Shown: positions 2,538 to 43,224, counted from the stretch's first letter. The stretch: 64,000 nucleotides of DNA from a bacterium (GCA_021813505.1 JAKAKI010000038.1:651-64650); one strand, 5' to 3'. Numbers and translations are program-made. Notes: a model not told the origin generated them from the sequence alone.

Positions 2538-2546
2538 GCATCCCTC

Positions 2547-9659: not shown

Positions 9660-9686
9660 GGTCGTGAGAACATCCTTTTGAAACAA

Positions 9687-9894: not shown

Positions 9895-9956
9895 GGTGGG
9901 CGGAGCCCACCCTACTACGAGTTTTGTGCGAGACAAGCAGGGTGGGCCGTGCCCAC
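9895..9956. repeat. two REP-like hairpins GGTGGGCGGAGCCCACCCTAC and GGGTGGGCCGTGCCCACC
   Basis: Same palindrome family as 1724-1743, 8284-8304, 63188-63252. Confidence 0.75.
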
Positions 9957-10015
9957 CTTTCTCCTCCATCGATCAGGGGCCCGCGGGTTTCTCAACACGC
10001 CCCGGAGTTCGTGGA

Positions 10016-10741: not shown

Positions 10742-10842
10742 TGATTCAGCCTTTGCTTGTGATAGTGAGTATGAATTGAGCCGTCAGTAAGAGCCCCGAA
10801 ACAGGCGTCAAGAGTCCCGAATGGCTCGTCGAAAGCCCCGAA

Positions 10843-11020
10843 GGGGCGCACTATCTCAGCCCAGGGCGAAGCCCTGGGTACCCGGTTCCAGATATGATCA
10901 AAGCCCTGAAAGGGCGTCCTACATCATGCCTAACAAGGTTGATTTGCGAGTTCATTAGGTCGCCCTTTCAGGGCTCTTTCTTTTCGACGTTTCTGACCCA
11001 GGCCTTCGGCCTGGGCTGAG
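10843..11020. repeat. cluster of GC-rich hairpins (GCCCCGAAGGGGC; CCCAGGGCGAAGCCCTGGG; AAAGCCCTGAAAGGGCG...CGCCCTTTCAGGGCT; CCCAGGCCTTCGGCCTGGG)
   Basis: Direct inspection. Shares the CCCTGAAAGGGCG inverted pair and the CCCAGGC-TTCG-GCCTGGG hairpin with 4209-4287. Confidence 0.7.
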
Positions 11021-11091
11021 TTATTGTGCCCTTTGAGGGCAAAACACTAGGTGCGCTCTCCTCAGGGTCCTTCCTGAAGCGGGCGGCCTTC

Positions 11092-12237: not shown

Positions 12238-12388
12238 TCCGAGGTCATTCCCGAAAGTCGTGAGAGCTGACGGGAGGGGAAGGCTCCCGCCGAGCCATTT
12301 TCCCGCGCGGTGAAGAGGATCGGCAGGAGCCTCGCCATCCCTCGAAACGCGGTCGGCAATTCAATGCAGCTCAGGGTAGTCGATTTCG

Positions 12389-14020: not shown

Positions 14021-14281
14021 ATGGGCCTGCAGTGTGCCGGTAAAGCGAATGCAGTATCAATTTACGTACAATCCGGCTGGGACGATGAGGATTTCTCGCG
14101 GGCGGGAGGCGACTGTGAACGAGTGAGTCGCGCCGCGCCCTCACCCCCGACCCCTCTCTCCCGGAGGGAGAGGGGAGATTCCTGCCGCGAACACAAACGC
14201 CTGACCGCACGGCATTCGGCCCCCCTTCCTCTGGGAGAGGGCTGCGGTGAGGGCGCCTCCGCGTGCCAGAGTCTAATCAGG

Positions 14282-17200: not shown

Positions 17201-17388
17201 GATCTCCGATTCGACGGCCTCCGGTCCGGCGCCGGGGTAGGCAGTTAGGACGACGATGAATGGGAAGTTGACGTCGGGGAACAAGTCGACAGACATCCGA
17301 GTGTAGGAGAAGACGCCCAGCACCATCAACGCCAGGATGATCATGACGGTGAAGACGGGGCGTTTGATCGCGGTATCGGCAAGTATCA
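14282..17388 (-). CDS. RND efflux transporter permease (AcrB/HAE1 family)
   Basis: 1035 aa from ATG at 17388 (MILADTAIKRPVFTVMIILALMVLGVF) with GGAG SD upstream. 12-TM RND topology and large periplasmic loops. Confidence 0.9.
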
Positions 17389-17414
17389 TTTCATGGTCCT
17401 CGATTGCGAGTTCA

Positions 17415-18446
17415 TTACTCGGCCACCGGATTAACCTTTGTGCCGTCCTGCAGGTTGTTCTGGCCGAGCGTGACAACCTGATCGCCGGCCTGCAACCCGG
17501 AGACGACTTCAACGAGCTTGCCGGACTCCACACCGGACGAGATCGCCTGGAAGTGGGCTACGGAGTCGCGGACCAGGTAGGTGCCGATGCCCGACTCGCG
17601 ATACACGAGAGCATCGCGCGGGATGCACACGACTTGATTGCGGCGCTCCAGTTCAATGGTGGCACCAACAAACATCCCCGGCAACAACTGATGGTCCAGA
17701 TTCGGCGCGAGAATTTCCACGGAGAGGGAGCGCGAGCCGGGATCGGCGGAGGATGAAATCTCATCGACCCACCCAGCGCCGACGAGTGTCGTATCCTGTT
17801 CTGAACGGATACGCACCTGCTGGCCCTTCGTGAGATCCTTGGATTCGTATACTGAAACATCAAGCAGGATGCGGACCGTATCGACGGCGGCGATCAAAGC
17901 CATCGGCTCACCCATTCCGGCCTGACGTCCGACGCGGGCATAGACCTCGGTGACCACGCCGCTGATCGGCGCGGTCAGGACGGCGGCGTCGCGGGCAGCT
18001 TCGTAATTGGCGCGGGCAACTTCGAACGCGGTCTTGTGCGCGTCACGCTCGATTTCGCTGACGGCTCCCTGCTGCAACAGGCGGTCGAATTTCTCTGAGG
18101 TCTTCTTGGCATCCTCATAGACAGCGCGGGCCTGGCGCACCGATGAACCGGGGCCGTTTTCGTCGAAGGTGATCAAGGGAGCGTTGGCGCGGATCGTGCT
18201 CCCCTCTTTTGCGTGAATGGAAACAATGGTCTCCGGAATACGCGCGTAAACTTTTGCCTGGCGGATACCCTCGACGGTCCCTGTATACGATCTGGTCCGT
18301 TGCAGGTCAGCGCGCGCAGCGGTGGCGACAACGACTGGCACACGGTCGTCGCCGTTGACCTTGGCCTTTTCACTAGAGCATCCGGGAGTGAACAACAAAA
18401 GCGCGGCACCCAGGACAGTCAGGGATTGTATTCGATCAGATCTCAT
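17415..18446 (-). CDS. RND efflux membrane fusion (periplasmic adaptor) lipoprotein
   Basis: Lipobox LLLFTPGCSS. Biotinyl-like/beta-barrel MFP pattern (AVLTAPISGVVTEVYARVG). Confidence 0.85.
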   Translation of the reverse strand: MRSDRIQSLTVLGAALLLFTPGCSSEKAKVNGDDRVPVVVATAARADLQRTRSYTGTVEGIRQAKVYARIPETIVSIHAKEGSTIRANAPLITFDENGPGSSVRQARAVYEDAKKTSEKFDRLLQQGAVSEIERDAHKTAFEVARANYEAARDAAVLTAPISGVVTEVYARVGRQAGMGEPMALIAAVDTVRILLDVSVYESKDLTKGQQVRIRSEQDTTLVGAGWVDEISSSADPGSRSLSVEILAPNLDHQLLPGMFVGATIELERRNQVVCIPRDALVYRESGIGTYLVRDSVAHFQAISSGVESGKLVEVVSGLQAGDQVVTLGQNNLQDGTKVNPVAE

Positions 18447-18492
18447 TTGCCTTGCCACATCTGGCTCCTTCGCTATAACCTCAAAGAGAATC

Positions 18493-19851
18493 CTATTCCA
18501 TTCCGACTGAGCTCAACACCGGTTCGCCCATGGCCCGACGCCACTGCGCGCGTGCCACGAGACGGTCATGGCGGGCGGTCTGGGCATAGATGCGCGCGGT
18601 GGTCAACTCCAGCTGGGCATCAAGAACCTCAAGCTGGGTTCCAACCCCCGACTCATAGCGCACGTTGGCGACTTGCAGACCGCGTTCGGCCTGGGCGACC
18701 GTTTCCTTCTGTGCCTCGAGCCGCTGGGTCGCTTCATGGAAATAATTGCGCGCCTGCTCGACTTCGAGGGCGACTCCCTTGAGCAGCGCCTCGCGACGGT
18801 AACGCGCTTGCGAGAGGTCCACTTTGGCAAGACCGACATTACCCGAACGGCGGAAACCATCGAAAATCGGGTATGAAACCAGGACCATTCCGAGCCACGA
18901 CTTGGAAACTTCTCCGGGACGGTATTTGAACTGGTCGGTTTGCGTCTGCCAGTTAAACATCCCCTTCAATTTCAGACTGGGCCAATAGTCGGCTTGCGCC
19001 GACTGCACACCATTGCCGAGAATCTTGACCTCGTACTCCGAGGCACGGACGTCGGGACGATGCCGCCGCGCATCAGCCACCAGTTGCTCCAGCGAATTCG
19101 ACTCCCAACTGGACGAATCAGGTTCGGAGTCCTGCAGTTCGATCCCGGTTCCGGAGGGGATGCCTATAATCGTGCGCAAACGCGAATCCGCAAGCTCACG
19201 GTTGTTCTGCGCCGATATCAGCGGTGGACGAAGGTTCGAGAGACGGACTTGCGCGCGCAGGTGGTCGTATTCGGAGACCAGTCCCTGGGCGAACTTTTTA
19301 TCGACGACGGCGAAGTTCTCTTCGGCCAGCGATAGTGATTGCTGGGAGACATCCACCAGCCGGCGAGCCAGGAGGGCATCGAAAAACGCCTGGGCGACCT
19401 CTGTCTCCAGATCCAATCGTGCCTGTGAGACCATTTCGTTGGTCATGCCGTGGTAGCTGCGCGCGGCGGCCCAGGCGGCAAAAACGCGTCCACCCTCCCA
19501 GAGGGACTGTTCGACCGATACGCCCCAGCTCGCAGTATGCCGCGTGCCGAATTGCACGGTCATCGGCACGTCGTTGAAGATGATCCGGTTCACGGCCAGT
19601 TTGAAGTTCCGCGTGTAGGATCCGTCGAATCGGATGTCCGGGAGAATTCCGGACCGCGCCTGCTTGATCCGGGCATCGGCGCGATCCTGCTCCGCCTGGG
19701 TGATGCGATACCGCTCGTTGGTTTCCAGTCCGCGCTTGATGGCATCGGACAGGGTCAGTGGCTGCTGCGCCGAGGCCGCTGCGGCCATCAACAAACCGAA
19801 GGTGATTGGTAACACCCAACGCAGCATCTTTTGTGCAACTGTTTGTCTCAT
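18493..19851 (-). CDS. TolC-family outer membrane efflux protein
   Basis: Signal peptide MRQTVAQKMLRWVLPITFGLLMAAAASAQQ, then two OEP repeats (LSLADAIKRGLETNERYRI...). Confidence 0.85.
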   Translation of the reverse strand: MRQTVAQKMLRWVLPITFGLLMAAAASAQQPLTLSDAIKRGLETNERYRITQAEQDRADARIKQARSGILPDIRFDGSYTRNFKLAVNRIIFNDVPMTVQFGTRHTASWGVSVEQSLWEGGRVFAAWAAARSYHGMTNEMVSQARLDLETEVAQAFFDALLARRLVDVSQQSLSLAEENFAVVDKKFAQGLVSEYDHLRAQVRLSNLRPPLISAQNNRELADSRLRTIIGIPSGTGIELQDSEPDSSSWESNSLEQLVADARRHRPDVRASEYEVKILGNGVQSAQADYWPSLKLKGMFNWQTQTDQFKYRPGEVSKSWLGMVLVSYPIFDGFRRSGNVGLAKVDLSQARYRREALLKGVALEVEQARNYFHEATQRLEAQKETVAQAERGLQVANVRYESGVGTQLEVLDAQLELTTARIYAQTARHDRLVARAQWRRAMGEPVLSSVGME

Positions 19852-19867
19852 CCTGTATTTCCCGGCT

Positions 19868-20548
19868 TTATGCTTTGGCTCTTGTCGCTGTGGCAACGAT
19901 ACCTTCGAAGAACACCGATACAATCATTTCCGTCTGCGCCCGAACCGTTTTGGCCGGGAGCGGCGGGACCATATTCATCACGTAGTAATCATGCACGATG
20001 CCGATGAACATCTTCGCCAAAATCATCGGATCAGAGCGGCGGATCAGGCGGCGGCGCATGGCCGATTTGAAGAGCTGTGCAAGCGGTTCCGCCACCATCT
20101 GGATTCGCGCGTGAATCTGGCCGATGGGGCAGGCAACGCCCTCCAGCTCCGGCCTAACCCACTCGCTCATCATCATCCGGCAAAAATCGAAATTGGCTTC
20201 GTAGTACGCAATCATCCGCTTGACATATTCTGTCAGCGCCTCGCGGATCGGCAGATCCATGACACTGACCTCACGCGCGATGGCGGTGACATCGTCCAGG
20301 AGGTCGGCGATAGCGGCGGAGAACAGGGTTTCTTTGCTTTCGAAGTAGTTGTAGACCGTACCCTTGCCAAATCCGGCGCGCTCGGCGATTTCTTCCAGGG
20401 TGGCATTGGCAAAGCCCTTCTCCGCAAAGACGGCACGGGCGGCGTGCACGATTTCGTGTCGCCGGGCGCTGCGTTCGCGCTCCTTGCGCGCCTTTGCTCC
20501 CGCGGAGCGGGGTCTCACATTGGCAGCGACGGCGGTTCGGGACGGCAT
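19868..20548 (-). CDS. TetR/AcrR family transcriptional repressor
   Basis: HTH IVHAARAVFAEKGFANATLEEIAERAGFGKGTVYNYF. First gene of the tetR-tolC-mfp-RND operon; ATG at 20546-20548 verified. Confidence 0.85.
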   Translation of the reverse strand: MPSRTAVAANVRPRSAGAKARKERERSARRHEIVHAARAVFAEKGFANATLEEIAERAGFGKGTVYNYFESKETLFSAAIADLLDDVTAIAREVSVMDLPIREALTEYVKRMIAYYEANFDFCRMMMSEWVRPELEGVACPIGQIHARIQMVAEPLAQLFKSAMRRRLIRRSDPMILAKMFIGIVHDYYVMNMVPPLPAKTVRAQTEMIVSVFFEGIVATATRAKA

Positions 20549-20599
20549 AGGACTCCGCGGTCAGAAAGTGACCGTTGGGTCAACTTAACGATTGGACGG

Positions 20600-20615
20600 T
20601 TTGCATAGTTGCAAA
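20600..20615. promoter_or_regulatory. candidate TetR operator palindrome TTTGCA-TAGT-TGCAAA
   Basis: Perfect 6-bp inverted repeat 52 bp upstream of tetR start, in the divergent promoter region with the + strand gene at 20721. Confidence 0.4.
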
Positions 20616-20720
20616 AAAGAATTGGAAGTTGTCACAAACTCGAAAGAGCCGTTTTGAGCTCACACGTGAGAATCAGGCGGTTGGGCTTGCGAATTCCACG
20701 GATCATGCTTTATTTAGTAT

Positions 20721-21865: not shown

Positions 21866-24800
21866 CTATCGCTTCGGACATGGATCGCAGAGGGGCTTGC
21901 CCTGACTGAAGATGTAGGACGTTACGGCATCGACATCCTTGCGGTTCACGACTCCGTCACAGTTCACGTCGCAGCGCTGGATCGCCGGGCAGGCGCCGGT
22001 GTCATTCAGCTTCTCAGCCTCGAAAACTACAGTGCACAGAATCGCCAGGTCGCTCACCGATACCTGACCATCGGTATCGATGTCGCCCGGTGCCGGGCAC
22101 CGGCACGGATCCAACGCCATGGCGGTCATCGGCACGCTATTGGACAGTGCCGAGAGTGACCCGCCACTGCAGTTCGTTCCATCCATCCGGATGCGCACAG
22201 TCAGCGACCACTTCCACGTGTTTCCGCACACCGATTGGCACTGCACCGTCGCGCGCACGTCTTCGTTGACGGTCGGCGTGTAAACCCAATACCCGCCTAT
22301 CAGCGTTCCCAAACCTCCAGAGACATAGCAGTCGACCAGCCCAATGGCGTTTGCATATAGAGGTATCATGATCGGGATCGACGGACAGGCATGTACGGTC
22401 GTGTCAAGGACCGGCTTGCAGACCGGCTTCAGGTTATCCCGTACAAAGGAGACTGTAAACGTCCCCTCGCAGAACGCCCCGCACGAATCGGTGCAACGGA
22501 TCGTCACGGTCACCGTGTCCGGGCCGTACGGCGTGTAGTTCCAGTTGCCACGCGACGAAATCTTACCCGGTCCCGACACGATCGTGCACGACTTGAAGTT
22601 GCCGTTCGCGTCAGTCGCACTCACCGGCAGACTGATCGTTGTCGGAATGCACTGCATGATGGTTGTGTCACGAGGCAGGTTGCATATCGGCGCGATATTG
22701 CCCTCGCACGGCGGAATCAACGACCGGTAGAGGATTGTCACACGGAACTGCGAACTGCAACTGTCGCACGCATCACGGCAACGGATTTCGACCAATACTG
22801 AGGTGTCCTTCGGCGCCGACCATGTGAAGCACCACTGGCCACCGGATAACGTTCCCGCACCGCTGATCTTGGTGCAGGTTACCGCGTCTCCGTCCACATC
22901 TGTACCACTCACCGGCAGACAGATCGTCACCGGTACAGTGGTCGTTGTGATTGAGGTGTCATGCGGCACGACGCAGACCGGCGGGTTGTTCGGCGTCTTC
23001 GTGACCAGCGCCACGTCCGTAGCCATACAGCCGTTTGCCGGATTGGTGACTGTCAACGTGTACGTCCCCGCTGCGTCCACGATCGGCGTGGCTGTCGTCG
23101 GACCCGACACGATGTGACCGCCGTTCGTCGCCGCCCAGCTGAAGGTGGCGCCCGGCGTGCTCGACGCACCCGACAGCGCAATCTGCGTCACCGTGCAGGT
23201 CAGAGCCTTGTCCGGTCCCGCATCCGCGTTCGGCAGTGTGTTGTCAAGGGTCACGGTAGCCGCGTCGCTGGCCTTACAACCGGTCGCCGTCACGGTCACC
23301 GTCAGAGTGTAGGTTCCCGGCTGGTCCACCAACGGCGTCGCCGTTGTGCCACCTGAAACGATGTGTCCACCAGCGGAGGCAACCCACGAGAAGGTCACGC
23401 CCGGAGTGCTGGACGAACCACTCAAGTTGATCTGTGTGACCGAGCAATTGAGCACCTTGTCGACACCGGCGCTCACGTTCGGAGTTGTCGCGTTTCGCGT
23501 CACCAGTGCCACGTCGGTCGCAGTACAGCCGTTGGTTGGATTGGTCACGGTCAGCGTGTACGTCCCCGGCTGATCCACCAGCGGGGTCGCCGTGTTTGCT
23601 CCCGAGACGATATGGCCACCCGCCGAAGCCACCCACGAGAACGTCGCTCCCGGAGTGCTCGACGAACCACTCAGGTTGATCTGCGTCACCGAGCAGGTCA
23701 GCACCTTGTCGGCGCCCGCGTCCGCATTCGGCGCCGTGTTGTTGCGGGTCACCGAGGCGACATCGGTCGCGGTACAGCCATTGGCCGGATTCGTGACCGT
23801 CAGCGTGTACGTGCCCGGCTGGTCGATCAGCGGTGTCGCCGTCGAACCACCCGAGACGATGTGACCGCCCGCCGACGCCACCCAGGAGAATGTCGCTCCG
23901 GGCGTCGAGGACGATCCGGAGAGATTCAACTGGGTTGCGGTGCAGGTCAGAATCTTGTCGGCACCGGCATTCGCGTTCGGCGCCGTGTTATTCAAGGTGA
24001 CCAATGCCACGTCGGTCGCTTTGCAACCGTTCGTGGGATTCGTCACGGTCAGAGTGTATGTCCCCGCCGCATCCACCGTCGGTGTGGCCGTTGTGCCGCC
24101 CGAGACGATGTGGCCACCTGCGGTTGCCACCCAGGTGAAGGTGACCCCGGGTGTCGAGGAGGATCCCGAGAGATTCAATTGCGTCACGGTGCAGGTCAGC
24201 ACCTTGTCGGTACCGGCGTTCGCGTTGGGCACCGCGTTGCTCTGCACGATCGTCGCCGCACACGAATCCTTGCAGCCATTCGGCAGGAAGGTCACGACGA
24301 CCCACTTTTGACCCGGTGTGTCATAGCGTGCGCACGATGTACCCTGTCCGGACAGAGGCGCCGGACGCCAGAGATACCTCACTATCGGGGTGGTCGATTT
24401 TCCGGCATCGAACCACTGCACGCAGGCACTTGCTTGCAGGCTGTCGCAGGTCAGCGTGTCGCCAAAACACTGGAGTCCCGGTTTGAAGATATCCTGCGAG
24501 ATCGTCGCCTCGCATGAATCCTTGCAGCCCGTCGCCAGAATCGTCACGACGACTTTCTTTTGACCCGGAGTGTCGTAACGGGCCCAAGGTGTGCCCTGTC
24601 CTGAAACCGGTGCCGGGCTCCAGAAATAGCTCAATCCATTCAGAGCTTTCCCGGCAGGCAGTGAGACCGAAGCCGTTGCCAGGACACTGTCGCAAGTCAG
24701 CACATCACCGGTGCAGCGAAGCTCAGGCTTGACGGTATTCTGTGTAATCTCCGTCGAACACGAGTCGGTGCAACCGTTCGCCAGATCCGTCACGACGGCC

Positions 24801-27800
24801 CACTTCGTCCCAGGGGCATTGTATCGTGCCCACGGTGTCCCCTGTCCGCTCACTGGAGATGGCTTCCACACGATGTTGTGCGTCCCGTTCATCTTCAGGC
24901 CCGGTGTTGTCAATGTGACGCTTGCGGTCGCCAGCAGGCTGTCACAGGTCAGTTCATCTCCGGAGCAGCGCAGCGACGGCTTCTCAATGTTCTGCGTGAT
25001 CACGGCCGAACACGAATCCTTACAACCGGTCGCCAGCACTGTTACGACCACCCACTTCGTCCCGGGTGAATCGTAACGCGCACTGGGAGTGCCCTGGCCA
25101 CTGATCGGCGCGGGGCTCCAGAGGTAGGAGTACGGCGACGGATTCGGATCCTTCCCTCGTCCCGGGAAAGTGACCGTTGCCGATCCCAGCAGGCTGTCGC
25201 AGGTCAGTTCATCGCCGGAGCAACTCAAGAGCGGCTTGTCGATGCTTTGCGTGATCGTCGCTTCGCAGGAGTCTTTGCAGCCCGTCGGCAGGTACGTCAC
25301 GACGACCTTCTTCTGGCCGGGCGTGTCGTACCGCGCGTTCATTGTTCCCTGTCCCGATATCGGCGCTGGCGTCCACAGGAAGGTGTATGGTTGGATCGCC
25401 TGAGAACCGGCGGTCGGGAAGATCACTGACGCTGTCGCCAGGAGGCTATCGCACGTCAGTTCGTCACCCGAGCAGGTGAACTCAGGTTTGAACTTGTTTT
25501 CCACCACGTCCACCGTGCACGTGTCCTTACAACCCGTCGCGAGAATCGTGACCACGACATGCTTGATTCCCGGCGTGTCGTAGACGGCCTGAGTCGTCCC
25601 TTGGCCCGACAAGGGCGAGGGATCCCAGAAGTAGCTGACGCCGACACTCGGGCCGGAGTTCACCCACGCGGTCGCCTGCAAATGCGCACACGTGATCGTG
25701 TCGGCTCCGCAACTGATTTCCGGACGGCGGATGTTTTGCGTGATTGTCGCTTGGCACGAGTCTTTGCAACCGGTCGCGGTGTACATCACGACCACTTTCT
25801 TCGGACCCGGTGTGTCGTAACGCGCCCACTGCGTTCCCTGGCCGCTGACCGGTTCCGGAGTCCACAAATAGGTCACGCCATTGGACGTCTTGCCCAGGTT
25901 GAACGACACCGACGCGGTCGCCAGCAGGCTGTCGCACGTCAGCTCATCGCCGTGACAACTGATCGACGGCTTGATGATGTTCTGTGTGATCACGGACGAG
26001 CAGGAGTCTTTGCAGCCCGTCGGCATGTAGGTCACGACTACCCACTTGGTGCCCGGTGTGTCGTAACGCGCTTCGGGTGTCCCCTGGCCACTGTTCGGAG
26101 ACGGACTCCAGAGGTAGCTCCACACCGGCCCCATCGCCTTTTGCGCCGATGGGAGTGTCACCGTCGCGGATGCGAGCAGACTGTCGCAGGTCAGCTCATC
26201 GCCATTGCAGGTCAAGATCGGTTTGACGATGTCCTGCGTGATCTCCGCCGAACAGGAGTCTTTGCAGCCCGACGGCGTGTAGGTTACTACGACCCACTTG
26301 GTTCCCGGCGTGTTGTAACGCGCATCCGGGGTTCCCTGGCCGGACAACGGCTCAGGGGTCCAGTGGAAGGTGAACGGGAACGGAATCTTTGACCCGGCCG
26401 TCCCCAACTGCACGGAGGCAGTCGCTTCCAGACTGTCGCAGGTCAGTTGGTCGCCCGAACAGGAGAGGACGGGCTTGTATATGTTTTGCTGGACGTCGAC
26501 GGTGCAGGAATCCTTGCAACCAGTCGCCAGAATCGTCACAATGACTTTCTTCGGACCCGGCGTGTCGTAGACGGCCTGAGTCGTCCCCTGGCCCGACAAG
26601 GGCGAGGGATCCCAGAAGTAGCTGACGCCGACATTGGGACTCGAGTTCGCCCACGCGGTCGCCTGCGGATGCGCACACGTGATCGTGTCGGCCCCGCAAC
26701 TGATTTCCGGACGCCGGATGTTCTGCGTGATCGTCGCGTCGCACGAGTCCTTGCAACCGGTGGCGGTGTACGTTACGACGACCTTCTTCGAACCCGGTGT
26801 GTCGTAACGCGCCCACTGCGTTCCCTGGCCGCTGACCGGTTCCGGAGTCCACAGATACGTCACGCCGTTTAAGGTCTTGCTTGGATCAAACGACACCGAT
26901 GCGGTCGCCAGCAGGCTGTCGCACGTCAGCTCATCGCCGTGACAACTGATCGACGGCTTGATGATGTTCTGCGTGATCACGGACGAGCAGGAGTCTTTGC
27001 AGCCCGTCGGCATGTAGGTCACGACTACCCACTTGGTGCCCGGTGTGTCGTAACGCGCTTCGGGTGTCCCCTGGCCACTGTTCGGAGACGGACTCCAGAG
27101 GTAGCTCCACACCGGCCCCATCGCCTTTTGCGCCGATGGGAGTGTCACCGTCGCGGATGCGAGCAGACTGTCGCAGGTCAGCTCATCGCCATTGCAGGTC
27201 AAGATCGGTTTGACGATGTCCTGCGTGATCTCCGCCGAACAGGAGTCTTTGCAGCCCGACGGCGTGTAGGTTACTACGACCCACTTGGTTCCCGGCGTGT
27301 TGTAACGCGCATCCGGGGTTCCCTGGCCGGACAACGGCTCAGGGGTCCAGTGGAAGGTGAACGGGAACGGAATCTTTGACCCGGCCGTCCCCAACTGCAC
27401 GGAGGCAGTCGCTTCCAGACTGTCGCAGGTCAGTTGGTCGCCCGAACAGGAGAGGACGGGCTTGTATATGTTTTGCTGGACGTCGACGGTGCAGGAATCC
27501 TTGCAACCAGTCGCCAGAATCGTCACAATGACTTTCTTCGGACCCGGCGTGTCGTAGACGGCCTGAGTCGTCCCCTGGCCCGACAAGGGCGAGGGATCCC
27601 AGAAGTAGCTGACGCCGACATTGGGACTCGAGTTCGCCCACGCGGTCGCCTGCGGATGCGCACACGTGATCGTGTCGGCCCCGCAACTGATTTCCGGACG
27701 CCGGATGTTCTGCGTGATCGTCGCGTCGCACGAGTCCTTGCAACCGGTGGCGGTGTACGTTACGACGACCTTCTTCGAACCCGGTGTGTCGTAACGCGCC

Positions 27801-30175
27801 CACTGCGTTCCCTGACCACTGACCGGTTCCGGAGTCCACAGATACGTCACGCCGTTTAAGGTCTTGCTTGGATCAAACGACACCGATGCGGTCGCCAGCA
27901 GGCTGTCGCACGTCAGCTCATCGCCGGTGCAACTGATCGACGGCTTGATGATGTTCTGCGTGATCACGGACGAGCAGGAGTCTTTGCAGCCGGTCAGCGA
28001 GTTGGTCACTACCACCCACTTGGTACCTGGAGTGTTGTATCTCGCGAACGGCGTTCCCTGGCCACTCAACGGCTCCGGCGTCCAGTGGAATGTGTAGGTG
28101 ACCGGGATCTTAGATTGCCCGACCAGTGCCACGGAGGCGGATGCCTCTGTGCTGTCGCACGTGAGTTCGTCTCCAGAACAGTTCAACACCGGTTTGGCGA
28201 TGTTTTGCTGCACATCCACGGTGCATGTGTCTTTGCAACCCGAACTCAGGATCGTCACTACGACACGCTTGACTCCCGGCGAGCCATACACCGCCTGTGT
28301 TGTTCCCTGGCCGCTGATCGGCGCCGGCTCCCAAAGGTAGCCCACGCCTTCGCTTGGGTTTGACGTCACCCACGCCGTTGCCTGAGGCCTCGCGCAGGTG
28401 ATTGTGTCGGCTCCGCAGCTCACTTCCGGCTTACGGATGTTCTGCGTGATCGTGGCCTCGCACGAATCCTTGCAGCCGTTGGCGAGAATCGTGACAACGA
28501 CCTTTTTGGAACCGGGTGTGTCGTAACGGGCGAATCGCGTCCCCTGTCCGCTGATCGGGGTGGGACTCCAGAGATAGCTGACCCCCTCCGAGGGGTTCGA
28601 CGTCACTGCCGCGGTGGCGAGCAGGCTGTCGCAGGTCAATTCATCCCCGGTGCAAACCAGCGCGGGTTTGCGCTGATCGACCGTGACCAGTGCGGAATCC
28701 ATCGCCTTGCAGCCATTTGCCGGATTCGTTACCGTTAGAATGTACTTTCCTCCAGCATCGACAAGCGGCGTTGAGGTCGTACCTCCCGAGACGATGTGGC
28801 CGCCCTCGGTTGCGAGCCAACTGAATGTGACAGACGGAGTCGTGGAGGAGCCGGAAAGGGTCACCATAGTCTCTGAGCAGGTGATGACCTTGTCGGCGCC
28901 GGCATTCGCGTTCGGCAGTGTGATATTGCGGGTTACGAGGGCCGTATCGACGGCGGTGCAGATACAACTGACACCTTCCACCGAGGCCGTTAGATTCGAG
29001 CTGTCAAAGCCGCCGGCCTTGCTGGAGCTTGAACTGCCGAATGACCGGGTCACGGTCAGAATGTAAGTCCCCGGAGCATCGACGATGGGGGTCAGCGTGT
29101 TTGCACCGCTGACGATGTGTCCGCCCCCTGTTGCTGTCCAATGGTAGGTGCTATTCGGTGTGGAGGATGATCCTTCGAGCATAAGCTGGGTTTTATCGCA
29201 GGTCAGAACCTTGTCGGGACCGGCATCCGCTTCTGCGCCGAGATTCAAGTTGACGCTTATCGGATCAACGAAGTCCTTCAATTCCGCGGTTGGCGAATCG
29301 GACGACTTGGTGCGAATGAACACGACCGGCACGGCGATGCAGGGATTCAGATTCTTGAGCAGCTTCGTCATGTTGAGGGCGGCTTCGCCGAATGCGTTCT
29401 TCACGTATGTCGTGCTGCCGAACGCTCCGAACGGCACCCATACGGCCGAGTCGATGTTCGCCGCGGTGTACGCGGCGCCGGAGGGCGGTGTGTAGTTATG
29501 GTACTTGAATCCTGAAGGCGCGCCGCCATCGGCCTCCCAGCGCTGAACCTTGAAAATAGCCTGCGAGCCGCCATTGCTCAAATCGATGGTGATCAGGATG
29601 TCGCCGACGGTGCGTCCGCCATTGGGTCCAAGGGAGGTGAATGTGGAGTCAGGGTTCTTGACGAGCGAATTCTGGAGAAACTCGAAATCGATATAGCTCG
29701 TGCCGGTGACGGACTTGCGGTCGCCGGCGACCATCACCCAAATATTCCCGGATCCATCAACGAGCCAACTGAACAGCGCGTTATTGATGTCATCCTTCGG
29801 GGGAACGCTTCCCGCCTTCCACGTGTAGGTGTTGGGATTATCGCTGACCTTCTGGCTGGCGGCGCCGAAGACAGTCAAGTCTGCCCCGCCGTACCCATCC
29901 AGGCTGTGATAGGTCTTGGTCGGATCCACTGGAATGCCGGTGTTCGTGAGAACCGCCGTGGATGCCGCGTTGGCACCGGGCACCCAATCATTGGTGGTGC
30001 CATATGGCACACCACTGGGTGACCTGGAGAGAAGGTTCCCATCGATTCCGAATCCGGCCGCAACGCCGGGGCCTTGCGCGAAGGCGCCGGTGGTGAGGAC
30101 CAGAAACGGTATGAACGCGGTGAGCGTGGTCCGAACCGTGGACCGGATGATCCGGGGAATGTACGGGCAGGTCAT
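21866..30175 (-). CDS. giant repeat-rich cell-surface protein (2769 aa): signal peptide, ~290-aa N-terminal domain, 2 PKD-like repeats, 18 four-cysteine ~82-aa repeats, 5 PKD-like repeats, Ig-like modules, C-terminal dockerin-like EF-hand pair
   Basis: Single uninterrupted ORF. Start at ATG (MTCPYIPRIIRS...signal FIPFLVLTTGAFAQG) with GGAG SD. PKD-like units NANAGxDKVLTCxVTQxNLSGSSSTPGxTFSWVAxAGGHIVSGGxTATPxVDxxGTYTLTVTNPxNGC. Four-Cys units C.GDxLTCDSLxATASV...Y.W.PxPxSGQGT..ARYDTPGxKxVVVT...GCKDSC...ITQNI.KP. C-terminus GDIDTDGQVSVSDLAIL...CDVNCDGVVNRKDVDAVTSYIF. Confidence 0.85.
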   Translation of the reverse strand: MTCPYIPRIIRSTVRTTLTAFIPFLVLTTGAFAQGPGVAAGFGIDGNLLSRSPSGVPYGTTNDWVPGANAASTAVLTNTGIPVDPTKTYHSLDGYGGADLTVFGAASQKVSDNPNTYTWKAGSVPPKDDINNALFSWLVDGSGNIWVMVAGDRKSVTGTSYIDFEFLQNSLVKNPDSTFTSLGPNGGRTVGDILITIDLSNGGSQAIFKVQRWEADGGAPSGFKYHNYTPPSGAAYTAANIDSAVWVPFGAFGSTTYVKNAFGEAALNMTKLLKNLNPCIAVPVVFIRTKSSDSPTAELKDFVDPISVNLNLGAEADAGPDKVLTCDKTQLMLEGSSSTPNSTYHWTATGGGHIVSGANTLTPIVDAPGTYILTVTRSFGSSSSSKAGGFDSSNLTASVEGVSCICTAVDTALVTRNITLPNANAGADKVITCSETMVTLSGSSTTPSVTFSWLATEGGHIVSGGTTSTPLVDAGGKYILTVTNPANGCKAMDSALVTVDQRKPALVCTGDELTCDSLLATAAVTSNPSEGVSYLWSPTPISGQGTRFARYDTPGSKKVVVTILANGCKDSCEATITQNIRKPEVSCGADTITCARPQATAWVTSNPSEGVGYLWEPAPISGQGTTQAVYGSPGVKRVVVTILSSGCKDTCTVDVQQNIAKPVLNCSGDELTCDSTEASASVALVGQSKIPVTYTFHWTPEPLSGQGTPFARYNTPGTKWVVVTNSLTGCKDSCSSVITQNIIKPSISCTGDELTCDSLLATASVSFDPSKTLNGVTYLWTPEPVSGQGTQWARYDTPGSKKVVVTYTATGCKDSCDATITQNIRRPEISCGADTITCAHPQATAWANSSPNVGVSYFWDPSPLSGQGTTQAVYDTPGPKKVIVTILATGCKDSCTVDVQQNIYKPVLSCSGDQLTCDSLEATASVQLGTAGSKIPFPFTFHWTPEPLSGQGTPDARYNTPGTKWVVVTYTPSGCKDSCSAEITQDIVKPILTCNGDELTCDSLLASATVTLPSAQKAMGPVWSYLWSPSPNSGQGTPEARYDTPGTKWVVVTYMPTGCKDSCSSVITQNIIKPSISCHGDELTCDSLLATASVSFDPSKTLNGVTYLWTPEPVSGQGTQWARYDTPGSKKVVVTYTATGCKDSCDATITQNIRRPEISCGADTITCAHPQATAWANSSPNVGVSYFWDPSPLSGQGTTQAVYDTPGPKKVIVTILATGCKDSCTVDVQQNIYKPVLSCSGDQLTCDSLEATASVQLGTAGSKIPFPFTFHWTPEPLSGQGTPDARYNTPGTKWVVVTYTPSGCKDSCSAEITQDIVKPILTCNGDELTCDSLLASATVTLPSAQKAMGPVWSYLWSPSPNSGQGTPEARYDTPGTKWVVVTYMPTGCKDSCSSVITQNIIKPSISCHGDELTCDSLLATASVSFNLGKTSNGVTYLWTPEPVSGQGTQWARYDTPGPKKVVVMYTATGCKDSCQATITQNIRRPEISCGADTITCAHLQATAWVNSGPSVGVSYFWDPSPLSGQGTTQAVYDTPGIKHVVVTILATGCKDTCTVDVVENKFKPEFTCSGDELTCDSLLATASVIFPTAGSQAIQPYTFLWTPAPISGQGTMNARYDTPGQKKVVVTYLPTGCKDSCEATITQSIDKPLLSCSGDELTCDSLLGSATVTFPGRGKDPNPSPYSYLWSPAPISGQGTPSARYDSPGTKWVVVTVLATGCKDSCSAVITQNIEKPSLRCSGDELTCDSLLATASVTLTTPGLKMNGTHNIVWKPSPVSGQGTPWARYNAPGTKWAVVTDLANGCTDSCSTEITQNTVKPELRCTGDVLTCDSVLATASVSLPAGKALNGLSYFWSPAPVSGQGTPWARYDTPGQKKVVVTILATGCKDSCEATISQDIFKPGLQCFGDTLTCDSLQASACVQWFDAGKSTTPIVRYLWRPAPLSGQGTSCARYDTPGQKWVVVTFLPNGCKDSCAATIVQSNAVPNANAGTDKVLTCTVTQLNLSGSSSTPGVTFTWVATAGGHIVSGGTTATPTVDAAGTYTLTVTNPTNGCKATDVALVTLNNTAPNANAGADKILTCTATQLNLSGSSSTPGATFSWVASAGGHIVSGGSTATPLIDQPGTYTLTVTNPANGCTATDVASVTRNNTAPNADAGADKVLTCSVTQINLSGSSSTPGATFSWVASAGGHIVSGANTATPLVDQPGTYTLTVTNPTNGCTATDVALVTRNATTPNVSAGVDKVLNCSVTQINLSGSSSTPGVTFSWVASAGGHIVSGGTTATPLVDQPGTYTLTVTVTATGCKASDAATVTLDNTLPNADAGPDKALTCTVTQIALSGASSTPGATFSWAATNGGHIVSGPTTATPIVDAAGTYTLTVTNPANGCMATDVALVTKTPNNPPVCVVPHDTSITTTTVPVTICLPVSGTDVDGDAVTCTKISGAGTLSGGQWCFTWSAPKDTSVLVEIRCRDACDSCSSQFRVTILYRSLIPPCEGNIAPICNLPRDTTIMQCIPTTISLPVSATDANGNFKSCTIVSGPGKISSRGNWNYTPYGPDTVTVTIRCTDSCGAFCEGTFTVSFVRDNLKPVCKPVLDTTVHACPSIPIMIPLYANAIGLVDCYVSGGLGTLIGGYWVYTPTVNEDVRATVQCQSVCGNTWKWSLTVRIRMDGTNCSGGSLSALSNSVPMTAMALDPCRCPAPGDIDTDGQVSVSDLAILCTVVFEAEKLNDTGACPAIQRCDVNCDGVVNRKDVDAVTSYIFSQGKPLCDPCPKR
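25950..27860 (-). repeat. near-perfect tandem duplication of a 987-bp (329-codon, four-domain) super-repeat inside the giant gene
   Basis: ORF-track fragments are identical or 1-2 aa different at a constant +987 offset: 26352..26852 vs 27339..27839; 26370..26570 vs 27357..27557; 26447..26872 vs 27434..27859; tail of 25559..26392 vs 26939..27379. A third, diverged copy follows (to ~28.4 kb) and a diverged copy precedes (~25.0-25.9 kb). Confidence 0.9.
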
Positions 30176-30594
30176 AACAACTCCTTTGAAGCGATACGCT
30201 CCTGTACCTATGAATTCAGAATCACCAATCGTTGCTCTCCGAGTGGCGGACCAGGGACACGATGTTGACCTGATGGCATGCAAGATCACGCAACTTCAAC
30301 CCCGGCGAGACGGGGCTACCCTTCCGCCGCGAGTGAAAACTCAATGCCTGGACAGGATTCCCGATTCGGACCGGCGGAATCGACCGGCCCGAGGTCCCAG
30401 CATCGCGATCCCCGCATTTAGTATATCGTCATTACCGGAAAAACTGTGCGCCAATCAGTTCTGCCAATCTGCCGATACCCATTTTGTGACGAACTGAGCG
30501 GTACAATTCAGACACGACAGATATCGTTATCGGTCTTGGCGTTATGGAGCGCAGGATTCGCAGGCCGACAGTGGGGGATTTCTCCCATACAGAC

Positions 30595-30650: not shown

Positions 30651-33600
30651 TTACCGTTTCGGACACGGATCGCACAACGATTTCCCCTGGCGGAACATGT
30701 ATGATGTCAGGGCGTCAACGTCCTTGCGATCCACGATGCCGTCGCAGTTCACGTCGCAACGCTGGATCTCCGGACAGGAGCCAGTTGTAGTGACTGTCTC
30801 GACTCTGTAGATAACGTTGCACAAAACCGCCAGATCGCTCACCGACACCTGGCCGTCGGCATCGATGTCACCCGGCGCCGGACAGCGGCAAGGATCGGGA
30901 GCTGATGCTGTCATTGGCATGCTGACCGATGGATCGGTTGCAATGGCCGACGCACAGTTACCGTCCATCCGGACACGCACGGTCAGTGACCACTTCCACG
31001 ACTTCCCGCAGAAGGACTGGCACTGCACAGTTACCCGAACGTCCTCGTTCACCGTCGGCACGTACACCCAGAATCCGTCCGCCAATGCTCCCGGACCGGC
31101 TACTATATACGCGTTGACCATTCCGACGGCGTTTGCGTACAGTGGAATCGTGATCGGGATCTCGGCGCACGCATGTACGGTCGTGTCAAGGACCGGCTTG
31201 CAGACCGGCTTCAGGTTATCCCGCACGAAAGAAACTGTAAACGTCCCCTCGCAGAACGCCCCGCACGAATCGGTGCAACGGATCGTCACCGTCACCGTGT
31301 CCGGGCCGTAAGGCGTGTAGTTCCAGTTGCCGCGCGACGAAATCGTGCCGGGACCGGAGATGATCTTACACGACTTGAAGTTTCCGTTCGCGTCGGTGGC
31401 CGAAAGCTTCAGGCTCACGGTTGTCGGGATGCACTGCACAATCGTCGTGTCATGCGGAAGATTGCATTCCGGTGCGATGTTTCCTTCGCATGGGGATACC
31501 GGCGACTGATAGAGGATTGTCACACGGAACTGCGAACTGCAACTGTCACACGCATCGCGGCAGCGGACTCCGACCAATACTGAGGTGTCCTTCGGCGCGC
31601 TCCATGTGAAGCACCACTGGCCGCCCGACAGCGTACCCGCACCGCTGATCTTGGTGCAGGTTACCGCGTCTCCGTCCACATCTGTACCACTCACTGGCAG
31701 ACAGATCGTCACCGGTACCGTGGTCGTTGTGATCGACGTGTCATGCGGCACCACGCACACCGGCGGGTTGTTCGGCGTCTTCGTGACCAGCGCCACGTCC
31801 GTAGCCATACAGCCGTTTGCCGGATTGGTGACTGTCAACGTGTACGTCCCCGCTGCGTCCACGATCGGCGTGGCTGTCGTCGGACCCGACACGATGTGAC
31901 CGCCGTTCGTCGCCGCCCAACTGAAGGTGGCGCCCGGCGTGCTCGACGCACCCGACAGCGCAATCTGCGTGATCGTACAGGTCAGGGCCTTGTCCGGTCC
32001 CGCATCCGCGTTCGGCAGCGTGTTGTCAAGGGTCACGGTAGCCGCGTCGCTGGCCTTACAACCGGTCGCCGTCACGGTCACCGTCAGGGTGTACGTGCCC
32101 GCCTGGTCCACCAACGGCGTCGCCGTTGTGCCACCCGAGACGATATGCCCGCCACCGGAAGCGACCCAGTTGAAGGTAACTCCCTGTGTCGTCGAAGATC
32201 CGGAGAGGTTGATCGAAGTTACCGAGCAATTGAGCACCTTGTCGACACCGGCGCTCACGTTCGGGGTTGTCGCGTTTCGGGTCACCAGTGCCACGTCGGT
32301 CGCAGTACAGCCGTTGGTTGGATTGGTCACGGTCAGCGTGTACGTCCCCGGCTGATCCACCAGCGGGGTCGCTGTGTTCCCACCCGAGACGATATGGCCA
32401 CCCGCCGAAGCCACCCAGGAGAAGGTCACGCCCGGGGTGCTCGACGATCCACTCAGGTTGATCTGTGTCACCGAGCAGGTCAGCACCTTGTCGGCGCCTG
32501 CATCCGCGTTCGGTGTCGTGTTGTTGCGGGTCACCGAGGCGACATCGGTCGCGGTACAGCCGTTGGCTGGATTCGTCACCGTCAGCGTGTACGTGCCCGG
32601 CTGGTCAATCAGCGGTGTCGCCGTCGAACCACCCGAGACGATGTGGCCGCCCGCCGACGCCACCCAGGAGAATGTCGCTCCGGGCGTCGAGGACGATCCG
32701 GAGAGATTCAACTGGGTTGCGGTGCAGGTCAGAATCTTGTCGGCACCGGCGTTCGCGTTCGGTGGAGTGTTGTTTAAAGTAACCAATGCCACATCGGACG
32801 CCTTGCAACCGTTCGTAGGATTGGTCACGGTCAGCGTGTATGTCCCCGCCGCATCCACCGTCGGGGTGGCCGTTGTGCCGCCCGAGACGATGTGGCCACC
32901 CGCCGATGCCACCCAGTTGAAGGTGACCCCGGGTGTCGAGGAGGATCCCGAGAGATTCAATTGCGTCACGGTGCAGGTCAGCACCTTGTCGGTACCCGCG
33001 TTCGCATTTGGCACTGCGTTGCTCTGCACGATCGTCGCCGCACACGAATCCTTGCAACCGTTCGGCAGGAAGGTCACGATCGCCCACTTCTGTCCAGGCG
33101 TGTCATACCGTGCGCACGCCGTTCCCTGACCAGAGACCGGCTCGGGACGCCACTGGTAACTCAGGATTGGCGTGGACGTCTTCGAGGCATCGAACCAGTA
33201 CACGCAGGCAGTTCCCTGCAGACTGTCGCAGGTCAGCGTGTCGCCGAAACACTGCAATTCCGGTTTGAAGATATTCTGCGTGATTGTGGCAGCGCACGAG
33301 TCCTTGCAACCCGTTTCCGGAATGGTGATGATCACCCACTTCGTCCCCGGGGTGTCATAGCGCGCAAAGGGCGTGCCCTGACCGCTTACCGGTGACGGTT
33401 TCCACAAGTAGCTAAAGCCATTCAGTGCCTTGCCTGATTGCGGCAGATTCACTGAGGCTGTGGCCAGCACGCTGTCGCAGGTCAATTCGTCACCCGAACA
33501 GCCGAATTCCGGTGTCCTGGCGTTTTGCATGATCTCGGCGGAACATGAGTCTTTGCAGCCCGACGCCAGATCCGTCACAACCACCCACTTCGTGCCCGGC

Positions 33601-36600
33601 GTGTCGTAGCGGGCAAATGGCGTTCCCTGACCGCTCAACGGCGCAGGACTCCACACGATAATCACTGTGCCATTTGTCTTCTGGCCGGGCGCACCGATCG
33701 TGACACTCGCTGTCGCCTGCAGACTGTCGCAGGTCAGAACGTCACCCGAACAACTCAGGGACGGCTTCTCGATCTTCTGCGTGATCACGGCCGAACACGA
33801 GTCTTTGCAGCCTGTCTCCAGAACCGTTACCACAACCCACTTCGTGCCGGGACTGTCGTAACGTGCATTGGGTGTTCCCTGGCCGCTAATCGGCGCCGGA
33901 CTCCAGACATAAGAGTATACTGCCGGATTCGGATTCTTCGCCTGCTCGATGAAGTTTACCGAGGCGGACGCCAGGAGGCTGTCGCAGGTGAGTTCATCAC
34001 CGGAGCAGCTCAAGAACGGCTTGTCGATACTTTGAGTGATCGTCGCTTCGCACGAGTCCTTGCAGCCAGTCGGTCCGTACGTCACCACCACTTTCTTCTG
34101 ACCCGGCGTATCGTAACGTGCCCACGGCGTCCCCTGGCCGCTGATCGGCTCCGGACTCCATACGATGAGGAACGGAATGAACGCCTGCGATCCCGCACTC
34201 GGGAATTGCAGCGACGCGGTCGCCAGCAGGCTGTCGCAGGTCAATTCATCACCTGAGCAGATGAATTGCGGTTTGTACAAGTTCTCCTGGATGTCCACGG
34301 TGCAGGTGTCTTTGCAGCCGGATTCCAGAATCGTTACCACAACACGCTTAATTCCTGGTGTGTCGTAAACGGCCTGCGTCGTCCCCTGGCCCGACAATGG
34401 CGCCGGATCCCAGAAGTAGCTGACGCCCACGCTCGGGCCTGAGTTCACCCAGGCGGTCGCGTGTGGATGCGCGCACGTGATTGTATCCGCGCCGCATGCG
34501 ACTTCCGGGCGCCGCGTGTTCTGCGTGATGTTCGCTTCGCACGAGTCCTTGCAGCCCGTGGCGGTGAACGTCACGACGACTTTCTTCCAACCCGGCGCAT
34601 CGTAACGCGCCCACTGAGTTCCCTGGCCGCTGATCGGTTCGGGGGCCCACAGGTACGTCACGCCATTTAGTATCTTGCTTGGGTCAAACGACACCGACGC
34701 GGTCGCCAGCAGGCTGTCGCACGTCAGTTCGTCGCCATGACAACTGATCGACGGCTTGATGATGTTCTGCGTGATCACGGACGAGCAGGAGTCTTTGCAC
34801 CCTGTCGGTAGATACGTCACGACGACCCACTTAGTGCCCGGTGTGTCGTATCTCGCAAACGGAGTTCCCTGGCCACTGATCGGCGCCGGGCTCCAGAAAT
34901 AGCCCCACACATCGACGAGCAGCTTCTGCGCGTCGGTCAGATTGACCGTCGCCGAGGCCAGCAGGCTGTCGCAGGTCAGCTCATCACCGGAACAGCTTAG
35001 CAGCGGCTTGATGACATCCTGCGCGATCTCCGCCGAACACGAGTCCTTGCAACCCGACGGCGTATAGGTCACCACCACCCACTTGGTCCCCGGTGTATTG
35101 TAACGCGCCTCCTGTGTCCCCTGGCCGGAAATCGGCTCGGGAGTCCAGTAGAAGGTGAACGGGAACGGAATCTTCGATGCGGCCGACACCAACTGCACGG
35201 AGGCGGTCGCTTCCAGGCTATCGCAGGTCAATTGGTCACCCGAGCAGGAAAGGACAGGCTTGTATATGTTTTGCTGAACGTCGACGAGGCAGCTGTCTTT
35301 GCATCCCGTGGCCAGAATGGTCACAACGACAACTTTGATACCGGGGGTGTCGTAAACGGCCTGCGTGGTTCCCTGGCCGGTGATCGGAGCCGGATTCCAG
35401 AAGTAGCTCACACCTTCACTGGGACTCGAGTTCACCCAGGCGGTCGCCTGCGGATGCACACACGTGATCGTGTCGGCTCCGCAACTGATCTCCGGACGGC
35501 GGGTGTTCTGCGTGATCGTCGCTTCGCAAGAGTCTTTGCAGCCGGTTGGCGTGTAGGTCACGACGACCTTCTTCGGACCCGGGGTATCATAACGCGCCCA
35601 CGGCGTTCCCTGGCCACTCAACGGATCAGGCGACCAGAAGAAAGTGAGCGGCGGCGGAATCTTGGCGTCATCCAGTACGATGCTCACCGAAGCAGTCGCC
35701 TGCAGGCTGTCACAGGTCAATTCGTCACCGGCGCAGAGCAGTTTGGGTTTGTAGGTATCTTGAACGATGTCAACGCTGCAACTGTCTTTGCAACCGGTCG
35801 CGGCAATCGTCACGGTCACCCACTTGATGCCGGGGGAGTCGTAGACGGCCTGGCTGGTTCCCTGCCCGCTCACTGGGGCCGGATTCCAGAAGTAAGTGAT
35901 GCCTTCGACGACACTCGATTGGACTGTGGCAGTCGCCTGCAGTTTGTTGCAGGTGATTGAATCGGCGTGACAGCTCAGCTCCGGCTTGGCGATATGCTGC
36001 GTGATTTCGGCTTCGCAGGAGTCCTTGCAGCCAGAATCGAGGACGGTCACCACGACCTTCTTAAATCCCGGCGTGTCATAACGCGCCAGGTTGGTCCCCT
36101 GGCCGCTCACGGGCGCGGGCGTCCAGAAGTAACTGATGTTGGTCAGCGACTTGGATTGCCCGCCCAGTAACACCGAAGCGGTGGCCAGAAGGCTGTCGCA
36201 GGTCAGATCATCACCGGAGCAGATCGGGACCGGCTTAACAGCGTTTTGCTCGACTATCGCCTCGCACGAATCCTTGCAACCGCTGCTCAGGATCGTCACG
36301 ACGACTTTCTTGGCGCCGGGCGCGTTGTACAGAGCGTGCGAAGAGCCCTGGCCGGAAAGCGGCGCGGGGTCCCAATTGTAGCTGACCGGCTCGGTGATAT
36401 TCGTGCTGACCGAGACACTCGCCATGACCGTGTTGCAGGTCAGGGTGTCGCCCGTGCAGGTCAGATTCGGCTTGCGGATATTCTGGGTGATTGTCGCTTC
36501 ACACGAATCAACGCAGCCATTGGCCGGGTTGGTGACAATTACCCACTTGGATCCCGGAGAATCGTAGCGGGCAATCGCCGTACCCTGGCCGCTGACCGGC

Positions 36601-42774: not shown

Positions 42775-43224
42775 GCTGGAGAACTGTGCATTTCAACAAT
42801 TCCTGCAACGTGGAAGCCAAGGTTCCCAGTTGGCCTGCAAGGGTGCCACACTCGCAAGTCTGATAGGCCGGGCAGGAGTGCCCGGCCTACCAATGTCGGA
42901 ATCTACCAGTACGCCCCACGCTTGTCAGATCGAGTTCATGCCCCAACCAGCGCCTGCGACGGGTTCCCACCGGCAAGATTCACTGTTTCAGAATTCTTCG
43001 GAAAACCGGGAATAAGACAGCGCTGAAAGTGTATTAGGGGTGTCGTAACTGGGTGCCGGGACGGCGCAGTGACCGGGTTAGTGGTCAGAATCGATGTGCC
43101 CCTTCCCCGCTCGAGCACTTGGTTGGCTCGAAGAATTCATGCACAGGTCCGGATACACTCGGGCCGGTCGTTAAATCCGTTGGGACTTCACACGGAGTGT
43201 GAAGTTGGGGAAAGGACGGTTGAC

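Follow-up and report, generated by a model that had tools for sequence, protein, structure and literature searches.

A near-identical 987-bp tandem duplication and probable length variation in the predicted stalk of a giant Zixibacteria protein

The window analysed here is a 64,000-nt stretch of a bacterial contig (GCA_021813505.1, JAKAKI010000038.1:651-64650), and its central feature is a near-identical tandem duplication inside one of two adjacent giant genes, referred to below as genes a and b. Both are open reading frames (ORFs) on the minus strand and encode paralogous giant proteins. The nearest sequence relatives are surface proteins of the candidate phylum Zixibacteria, and a syntenic contig from a Zixibacteria groundwater metagenome-assembled genome (MAG) matches the locus with 85–90% DNA identity. 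The host is an uncultured Zixibacteria bacterium.

Gene a (21866-30175, minus strand) encodes a giant predicted surface protein of 2769 amino acids (aa). Its ORF spans 21866-30289, and the start is taken as M39 at 30175, which is where gene callers placed it on two independent contigs, L019 and L020. The protein begins with a signal-peptide-like N-terminus, a head of ~325 aa, and two Ig_7/PKD domains. These are followed by 18 Cys-rich domains, five Ig_7/K319L-like PKD domains, three Big_9-like modules, and a C-terminal dockerin type I (Dockerin_1 match with E 1.7e-5, above the cutoff). The head has no family match in Pfam or NCBIfam and no match in the PDB. The product is presumably located at the cell surface, where it may serve as a stalk. 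The paralogous gene b (30651-39671, minus strand, from ORF and domain scan) encodes 3006 aa, with a VWA head followed by six PKD and then 15 Cys-rich domains; its C-terminal modules and dockerin are those of gene a.

The Cys-rich domains of gene a (a1–a18, ~82 aa each) form a continuous array at 24221-28654 on the minus strand. Domain alignment divides them into four types by length and sequence, A (82 aa), B (79 aa), C (84 aa), and D (84–85 aa), and A-B-C-D together make a super-repeat of 329 aa or 987 nt. Three such units lie on the minus strand of the array: U1 at 26945-27931 (domains a4–a7), U1' at 25958-26944 (a8–a11), and U2 at 24968-25957 (a12–a15). U1' is an extra copy with 99.7% protein identity to U1, and U2 is an older unit with 78% aa identity to U1. 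The four domains inside one unit are 48–68% identical to each other, and neighbouring domains across gene a share 44–68% aa identity, with high identity recurring only at a period of four.

Self-comparison at an offset of 987 shows that window positions 25986-26827 and 26973-27814 match exactly over 842 bp, the latter being the upstream and the former the downstream copy in gene orientation. Identity of at least 95% extends over positions 25902 to 27004 compared with those 987 further on, giving a near-identical tract at 25902-27991 that measures 2 x 987 + 116 nt. The same periodicity of 987 was returned by a repeat search and by TRF. No exact repeat in the locus is longer than the 842-bp match, the runner-up being 161 bp. 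Only two direct repeats with at least 95% identity over 200 nt exist in the whole 64-kb window, at offsets of 987 and 8782, the second of which joins genes a and b. A chance origin of the 987-bp repeat is therefore excluded. At the DNA level, domains a4–a7 are 98/100/100/100% identical to a8–a11, and of the codons that differ, four are synonymous and one changes an aa (T to H). The duplication is in frame, as 987 nt corresponds to 329 codons and to domain lengths of 82+79+84+84 aa, and the 2769-aa reading frame of gene a is open throughout.

These results bear out the initial annotation, which had described a near-identical 987-bp tandem duplication at 25950-27860 and proposed a comparison of the gene against itself as a check. 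The position holds, although the real block is ~180 bp wider than was claimed. Its placement inside a giant gene is also confirmed, with the correction that this gene is on the minus strand. Likewise, the proposal that protein repeats 4–7 equal 8–11, with 12–15 diverging and diverged copies on both flanks, agrees with the domain alignment. Compared with a8–a11, a12–a15 are 90/83/71/71% identical, and the upstream domains a1–a3 are 59–75% identical.

Comparison with gene b places the units in an evolutionary order. The gene b array has only two units, b5–b8 and b9–b12, among its 15 Cys-rich domains. U1 is 82.4% identical to b5–b8 and U2 is 82.4% identical to b9–b12, compared with 78% between U1 and U2. 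As each is closer to its counterpart in gene b than the two are to each other, these identities place the two-unit state before the duplication that gave rise to genes a and b, and make the third unit U1' an addition specific to the gene a of this window. Domain order is stable, with no extra unit, in gene b and in its ortholog from a related species. The contig carrying this ortholog (L001, JACRMA010000085.1, 8562-11421) ends inside its Cys-rich array, and its frame is interrupted near position 9281. Domain lengths from b2 to b7 follow one order in both species. Scans of genome and metagenome contigs with the 329-aa unit returned only the related species and distant relatives, and gave no comparison of gene a copy number.

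The edges of the duplication point to how it may have arisen. In gene orientation, near-identity starts with the final 60 nt of a3 and stops 56 nt into a12. This defines a segment of 116 nt, termed h, made up of a D-type tail and an A-type start, which occurs in three copies that are 111–114/116 identical. On the minus strand, h0 (27876-27991) covers the last 60 nt of a3 and the first 56 nt of a4, h1 (26889-27004) the tail of a7 and start of a8, and h2 (25902-26017) the tail of a11 and start of a12. As the junction between the two copies, h1 is the novel one made by the duplication, and matches h0 at 113/116 and h2 at 114/116 positions, compared with 111/116 between h0 and h2. The b8/b9 junction of gene b is also 108–111/116 identical to the h copies, whereas identity in the domain bodies around h is only 73–88%. 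Unequal crossing-over between two h copies 987 nt apart yields exactly an h-R1-h-R1-h-R2 arrangement with identity over two unit lengths plus h, which accounts for the observed tract. The arrangement is in frame and contains a hybrid novel junction.

The pattern inside the junction is nonetheless a mosaic. All differences between U1 and U1' are confined to a joint of 145 nt on the minus strand (26828-26972), located between the two exact 842-bp blocks, in which informative sites alternate between a4-like and a12-like. Read across the joint, h1 agrees with h0, then h2, h0, h2, and finally h0 again. A single-crossover origin of h1 is ruled out by this alternation, and further events would be needed, either patchy heteroduplex repair or later micro-conversion. 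With this refinement, the three h copies, the near-identity over two units plus h, and the mosaic joint between exact blocks support the suggestion in the initial annotation of a very recent unequal recombination or expansion of a four-domain block.

Public contigs of the same species allow the copy number to be compared. The genes for the BshC product and the DUF2279 protein beside the 3' end of gene a are present on 11 and 14 of these contigs, respectively, with 99.7–100% identity. None of these contigs carries an intact gene a or an intact gene b, and several end inside the C-terminal part of gene a. Two of them end at 23117, which is 140 nt (k-1 at a k-mer size of k=141) into a 161-bp exact repeat shared by genes a and b. 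This geometry predicts a contig on the b side that starts at 31899 and carries a 415-aa C-terminal fragment of gene b, and look-up identified two such contigs from different samples, L019 (ENA ERZ27237541, MEGAHIT k141, 7019 nt) and L020 (ERZ27237538).

From its start inside gene b, L019 continues past the gene b stop codon and across the intergenic spacer, and covers 1765 aa of gene a. Its sequence follows the window collinearly from 31899 to 23894, minus exactly one 987-bp unit. Both h0 and h2 are present and h1 is absent, leaving 14 Cys-rich domains compared with 18 in the window, a comparison of one short-read contig with one assembly. The flanks differ by one mismatch in ~5.9 kb (~99.98% identity). 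The unit of L019 carries seven single-nucleotide polymorphisms (SNPs), all synonymous and all at sites where both window copies agree. L020 crosses the entry to the exact block unbroken, then ends past a strain-specific SNP cluster. MEGAHIT contigs are unitigs without repeat resolution. As L019 crosses the 842-bp node, the h1 branch must have been absent or rare in that sample, and the best reading of L019 is a true one-unit haplotype.

The variants of L020 are of separate interest. L020 differs from the window at 18 sites, all of them in a5–a6 (L020 4259-4610, window 27290-27641), and matches it throughout the 4.2 kb upstream. Among the a5 variants, 7/10 match the paralogous domain b6, and L019 shares five of the a6 variants. 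This cluster suggests templated conversion or retained ancestral states.

Three further proposals of the initial annotation can be judged against these contigs. It had raised the duplication as a possible mechanism of length variation in the stalk, and the existence of an independent same-species contig with exactly one unit fewer supports this. Its suggested comparison of copy number across related assemblies yields the difference between L019 and the window. Its warning that short-read assemblies have difficulty in this region is also justified, as public contigs end or jump inside genes a and b.

Taken together, the locus probably contains a real and very recent in-frame tandem duplication generated by unequal homologous recombination, with the number of units varying within the species. 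Both the recombination mechanism and any functional effect of the change in length are presumptive. The pre-existing state would have had two copies of the 116-nt h, 987 nt apart, where a D-type end meets an A-type start. Unequal homologous recombination between these copies would give the h-R1-h-R1-h-R2 product, and patchy heteroduplex repair or later micro-conversion could then produce the mosaic 145-nt joint. The stalk would thereby gain four PKD/Ig-like β-sandwich domains, or ~15 nm judging from typical Ig-domain lengths. No identical domains become neighbours in the process because the domains within a unit are only 48–68% identical. The longest exact match between h0 and h2 is 39 nt, whereas after duplication it is 842 nt. 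As homologous recombination depends on the extent of homology, the locus is expected to be far less stable than before. The 842-bp perfect repeat would be a far better recombination substrate than the 39-nt match, allowing copy number to rise and fall easily. The outcome would be a population polymorphic in stalk length, in the manner of the Periscope Proteins discussed below.

Several points weigh against this explanation. The mosaic of h1 needs more than one simple crossover. Copy number was read from assembled sequence, and just one of the independent contigs extends across the entire region. In a short-read assembly with k < ~106, a false loop built from strain alleles is possible in principle. 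An assembler that traverses such a loop would report two copies whatever the true number, meaning that two is a minimum and more identical copies could be collapsed. Finally, the unit could have been lost in L019 rather than gained in the window lineage.

This last point leads to the first alternative, in which the mechanism is the same but reversed. The duplicated state would be the older one within the species, and L019 would represent a recent deletion inside the 842-bp repeat. Deletions between long perfect repeats are frequent, and a crossover between the two copies inside the exact block would leave exactly the h0, unit, and h2 seen in L019. However, the two units of the outgroup paralog b favour the extra unit as the derived state, and the perfect identity of the window copies speaks for an origin more recent than the seven-SNP divergence between the strains. 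A recent loss in L019 is doubtful.

It is improbable that the second copy is an artefact of the window's assembly. Under this explanation, the genome would contain a single unit and the assembler would have walked twice around a false or strain-induced loop, with the start of a8 being an a4 allele from a co-occurring strain. Several circumstances fit such an error: the source is a single NCBI contig of 66.8 kb whose assembler is unknown, all other public assemblies of the species break or jump in genes a and b, the differences between U1 and U1' lie in only two tiny patches that could be alleles, and strain SNP clusters do occur in the 987-bp unit. Conversely, h0 and h2 as found in L019 share no more than 39 nt of exact sequence, and a single-unit genome thus has no cycle at the usual final k (at least 55). 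A false h1 would need two further unobserved alleles as well as k < ~106, and an error would also have to produce a junction that is in frame, keeps the domain phase, and has the exact geometry of two units plus h. One further candidate for independent support of the two-copy state, P0179, an entry for the gene a product in a public protein set, was rejected, as it is a 100% identical singleton from one NCBI contig that is the window's own record.

Least probable of all is an old duplication homogenised by gene conversion, with three units fixed in the species and L019 collapsed; conversion appears active here, given an island of 87–99% identity between genes a and b among 65–84% surroundings, the gradual climb in identity from a15 to a12 toward the duplicated block, and the match of L020 a5 variants to paralog b6 at 7/10 sites, but a unitig assembler cannot silently collapse a repeat whose h1 k-mers are present at comparable depth when L019 crosses the node and L020 its entry, the window copies differ at 0 sites over 842 bp yet at seven from the L019 allele, and gene b and its related-species ortholog keep their domain order without an extra unit. 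A very recent tandem duplication by unequal recombination remains the preferred explanation.

The a/b island just mentioned is the second recombination-prone feature of the locus. It lies at 22842-24297 in gene a, matching gene b at 31624-33079, and corresponds to a block of five Ig_7/PKD domains. Identity falls to 65–84% on the side of the Cys-rich array and to 65–91% on the side of the C-terminal modules. From this pattern, gene conversion between the two paralogs is suggested as the origin of the island. The 161-bp exact repeat lies within it (22977-23137, equal to 31759-31919), and it is here that public contigs switch or stop. MEGAHIT contigs from two further samples, L011 (ERZ27237563) and L012 (ERZ27237554), are 100% identical to the 3' end of gene a up to the 161-bp repeat and then 100% identical to gene b. 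They encode a single 3007-aa b/a hybrid and are without 8782 bp, including the entire gene a array. These contigs are either a real deletion, representing a single-gene haplotype, or chimeric unitigs. Public assemblies therefore show presence/absence differences at each of the two long direct repeats of high identity in the locus. This coincidence fits a recombinationally active locus, but it equally marks two ambiguities in short-read assembly graphs.

The nature of the Cys-rich domain itself bears on what a change in copy number would do. Its consensus is C.GD.LTCDS...W.P.P.SGQGT..ARYDTPG.K.VVVT...GCKDSC, and an alignment of 30 copies contains 20 invariant columns, four of them Cys. No Pfam match was found even at E<=10, for single domains or for the whole unit, and there was no NCBIfam match and no PDB sequence match. 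The Ig_7 and K319L-like_PKD Pfam matches of the gene a protein lie in different repeats that flank the array. AlphaFold predicts a β-sandwich for the single domain with a predicted local distance difference test (pLDDT) score of 83, and the best solved fold match is the PKD domain of KIAA0319 (2e7m, E 1.5e-3, template modelling score (TM) 0.57). A profile built from the 30 copies reached 2,043 cluster representatives, many of which are proteins of 2–4 thousand residues with 15–38 copies. The best non-self matches were to repeats labelled PKD_4 or K319L-like_PKD by Pfam, in proteins ending in a type IX secretion system (T9SS) CHU_C domain. Although no match passes a Pfam gathering threshold, the predicted β-sandwich fold and the remote homology to PKD repeats together argue that the Cys-rich domain is a divergent member of the PKD/Ig-like clan without a Pfam model. 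As a candidate new PKD-clan family, it is found in the window at 24221-28654 and 33003-36695, recognisable by its SGQGT and GCKDSC motifs.

The AF2 model of the four-domain unit consists of four β-sandwiches with a pLDDT of 89, and its predicted template modelling score (pTM) of 0.54 leaves the relative orientation of the domains uncertain. Its best solved matches are fragments of the GhpA grappling-hook shaft (E 5e-15, TM ~0.5), an RTX adhesin extender, and titin I65-70. Matches to extended shafts, together with the signal-peptide-like N-terminus and the dockerin, favour a stalk role. A bead-on-string stalk is thus supported for the Cys-rich array by these models, but not proven.

Variable stalks of this general kind are known from the Periscope Proteins, single-chain surface proteins in which tandem, highly identical folded domains form a rod, such as the E-G5 repeats of SasG and Aap, Rib, and the SHIRT domains of Sgo_0707 (Whelan et al. 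2021, PMC8201768; PMC9704523). Their repeat number varies between strains, for which homologous recombination has been proposed, and they were identified by a screen for repeats of >50 residues with at least 80% identity (PMC8201768, PMC9704523). Adjacent SHIRT domains are 82–100% identical, against the rule that neighbours share <50% (PMC8201768, PMC9704523). The stalk of gene a is similar in being a tandem array of independently folding domains with high DNA identity between repeats and a proposed origin by recombination. The two copies of the 329-aa unit, at 99.7% aa identity, pass the sequence screen, with the third unit at 78% just below the threshold, and L019, a single short-read contig, suggests that repeat number may likewise differ between close strains. 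SasG and Aap likewise repeat a multi-domain unit. However, near-identical neighbours are not found in gene a, where adjacent domains share 44–68% aa identity, and only two units are near-identical, with the third at 78%. Instead of a pathogen, the host is a Zixibacteria bacterium from the environment that has not been cultured, the protein ends in a dockerin rather than an LPXTG or β-barrel anchor, and the variation is seen in one contig instead of a strain collection. The locus would work like a Periscope-type variable stalk, with a predicted rod shape and anchoring, but membership of the group is not established.

Other systems resemble the array in fold or in mode of growth. The best structural match to the four-domain unit is GhpA of Aureispira (PDB 9flx, 9g8b, 9flu), which shares with giant Bacteroidota T9SS proteins rich in PKD, Ig_7, and SprB domains a long bead-on-string shaft of Ig-like domains. 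Among these, the PKD_4/K319L-like repeats of giant CHU_C proteins of 2–4 thousand residues are remote sequence relatives of the Cys-rich domain. In contrast to GhpA, the window proteins end in a dockerin instead of a T9SS C-terminal domain and show no sign of heptameric hooks or predation, and the identity to it is only 14–17%. The tandem Ig-like extenders of RTX/BIg adhesins, such as the tetra-tandem repeat of Aeromonas RTX (6xi1, itself a fold match) and SiiE, also project a distal binding module. They differ in their type I secretion route, calcium-dependent rigidification motifs, and domain family, none of which was detected in the window proteins. In titin and nebulin, Ig-like arrays have grown by duplication of multi-domain blocks with a fixed period and dissimilar neighbours. 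Such block-wise growth is comparable to that of gene a by analogy only, as the proteins are evolutionarily unrelated, even though titin I65-70 is among the fold matches.

Further observations concern the neighbourhood of the giant genes. Both proteins have dockerin type I C-termini (window 21866-22100 and 30651-30900), whereas most homologs in other Zixibacteria and Bacteroidota carry a T9SS sorting domain at the C-terminus instead. A 479-aa protein with a T9SS Por_Secre_tail is encoded nearby (43069-44508). The downstream neighbours at 2389-20700, annotated from contigs L004 and L013, are housekeeping genes, none obviously tied to the giant genes. They comprise a TetR-regulated RND efflux operon, the bacillithiol genes BshC, GT4, and PIG-L, the selenocysteine genes SelA and SelB, an amidohydrolase, and NfeD. 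A protein search found no relative of the duplicated block or of the gene a N-terminus above ~68% identity; proteins listed in that database did not exceed ~1,450 aa, and the L020 fragment was not among them, making this result uninformative. No match was obtained when the exact products of the intact genes a and b and of the ABC-transporter neighbour were looked up. A preprint on giant genes (10.1101/2023.11.21.568195) deals with Omnitrophota and has no bearing on the present family.

Most likely, the locus represents a known kind of variation, namely change in repeat number driven by recombination, here in an under-studied phylum. In public short-read MAGs of this species, the region is broken or chimeric, and gene content and giant-protein lengths taken from databases are therefore not trustworthy here without long reads. 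The repeated domain would belong to a widespread Cys-rich PKD-like family with 2,043 cluster representatives and no Pfam model. More tentatively, Zixibacteria may possess a super-repeat form of the Periscope Protein, in which stalk length is tuned in four-domain steps through the 116-nt junction, avoiding identical neighbours and with them the misfolding cost borne by classical Periscope Proteins. This form might be accompanied by switching, through the second repeat at the 8782-bp offset, between a state with two giant genes and a state with a single hybrid gene, such that at least three structural haplotypes coexist in nature. If true, recombination-driven length variation of surface proteins would extend from cultured pathogens to an uncultured phylum of groundwater and sediment, and an Ig-like stalk could be expanded four domains at a time without identical domains being placed side by side.

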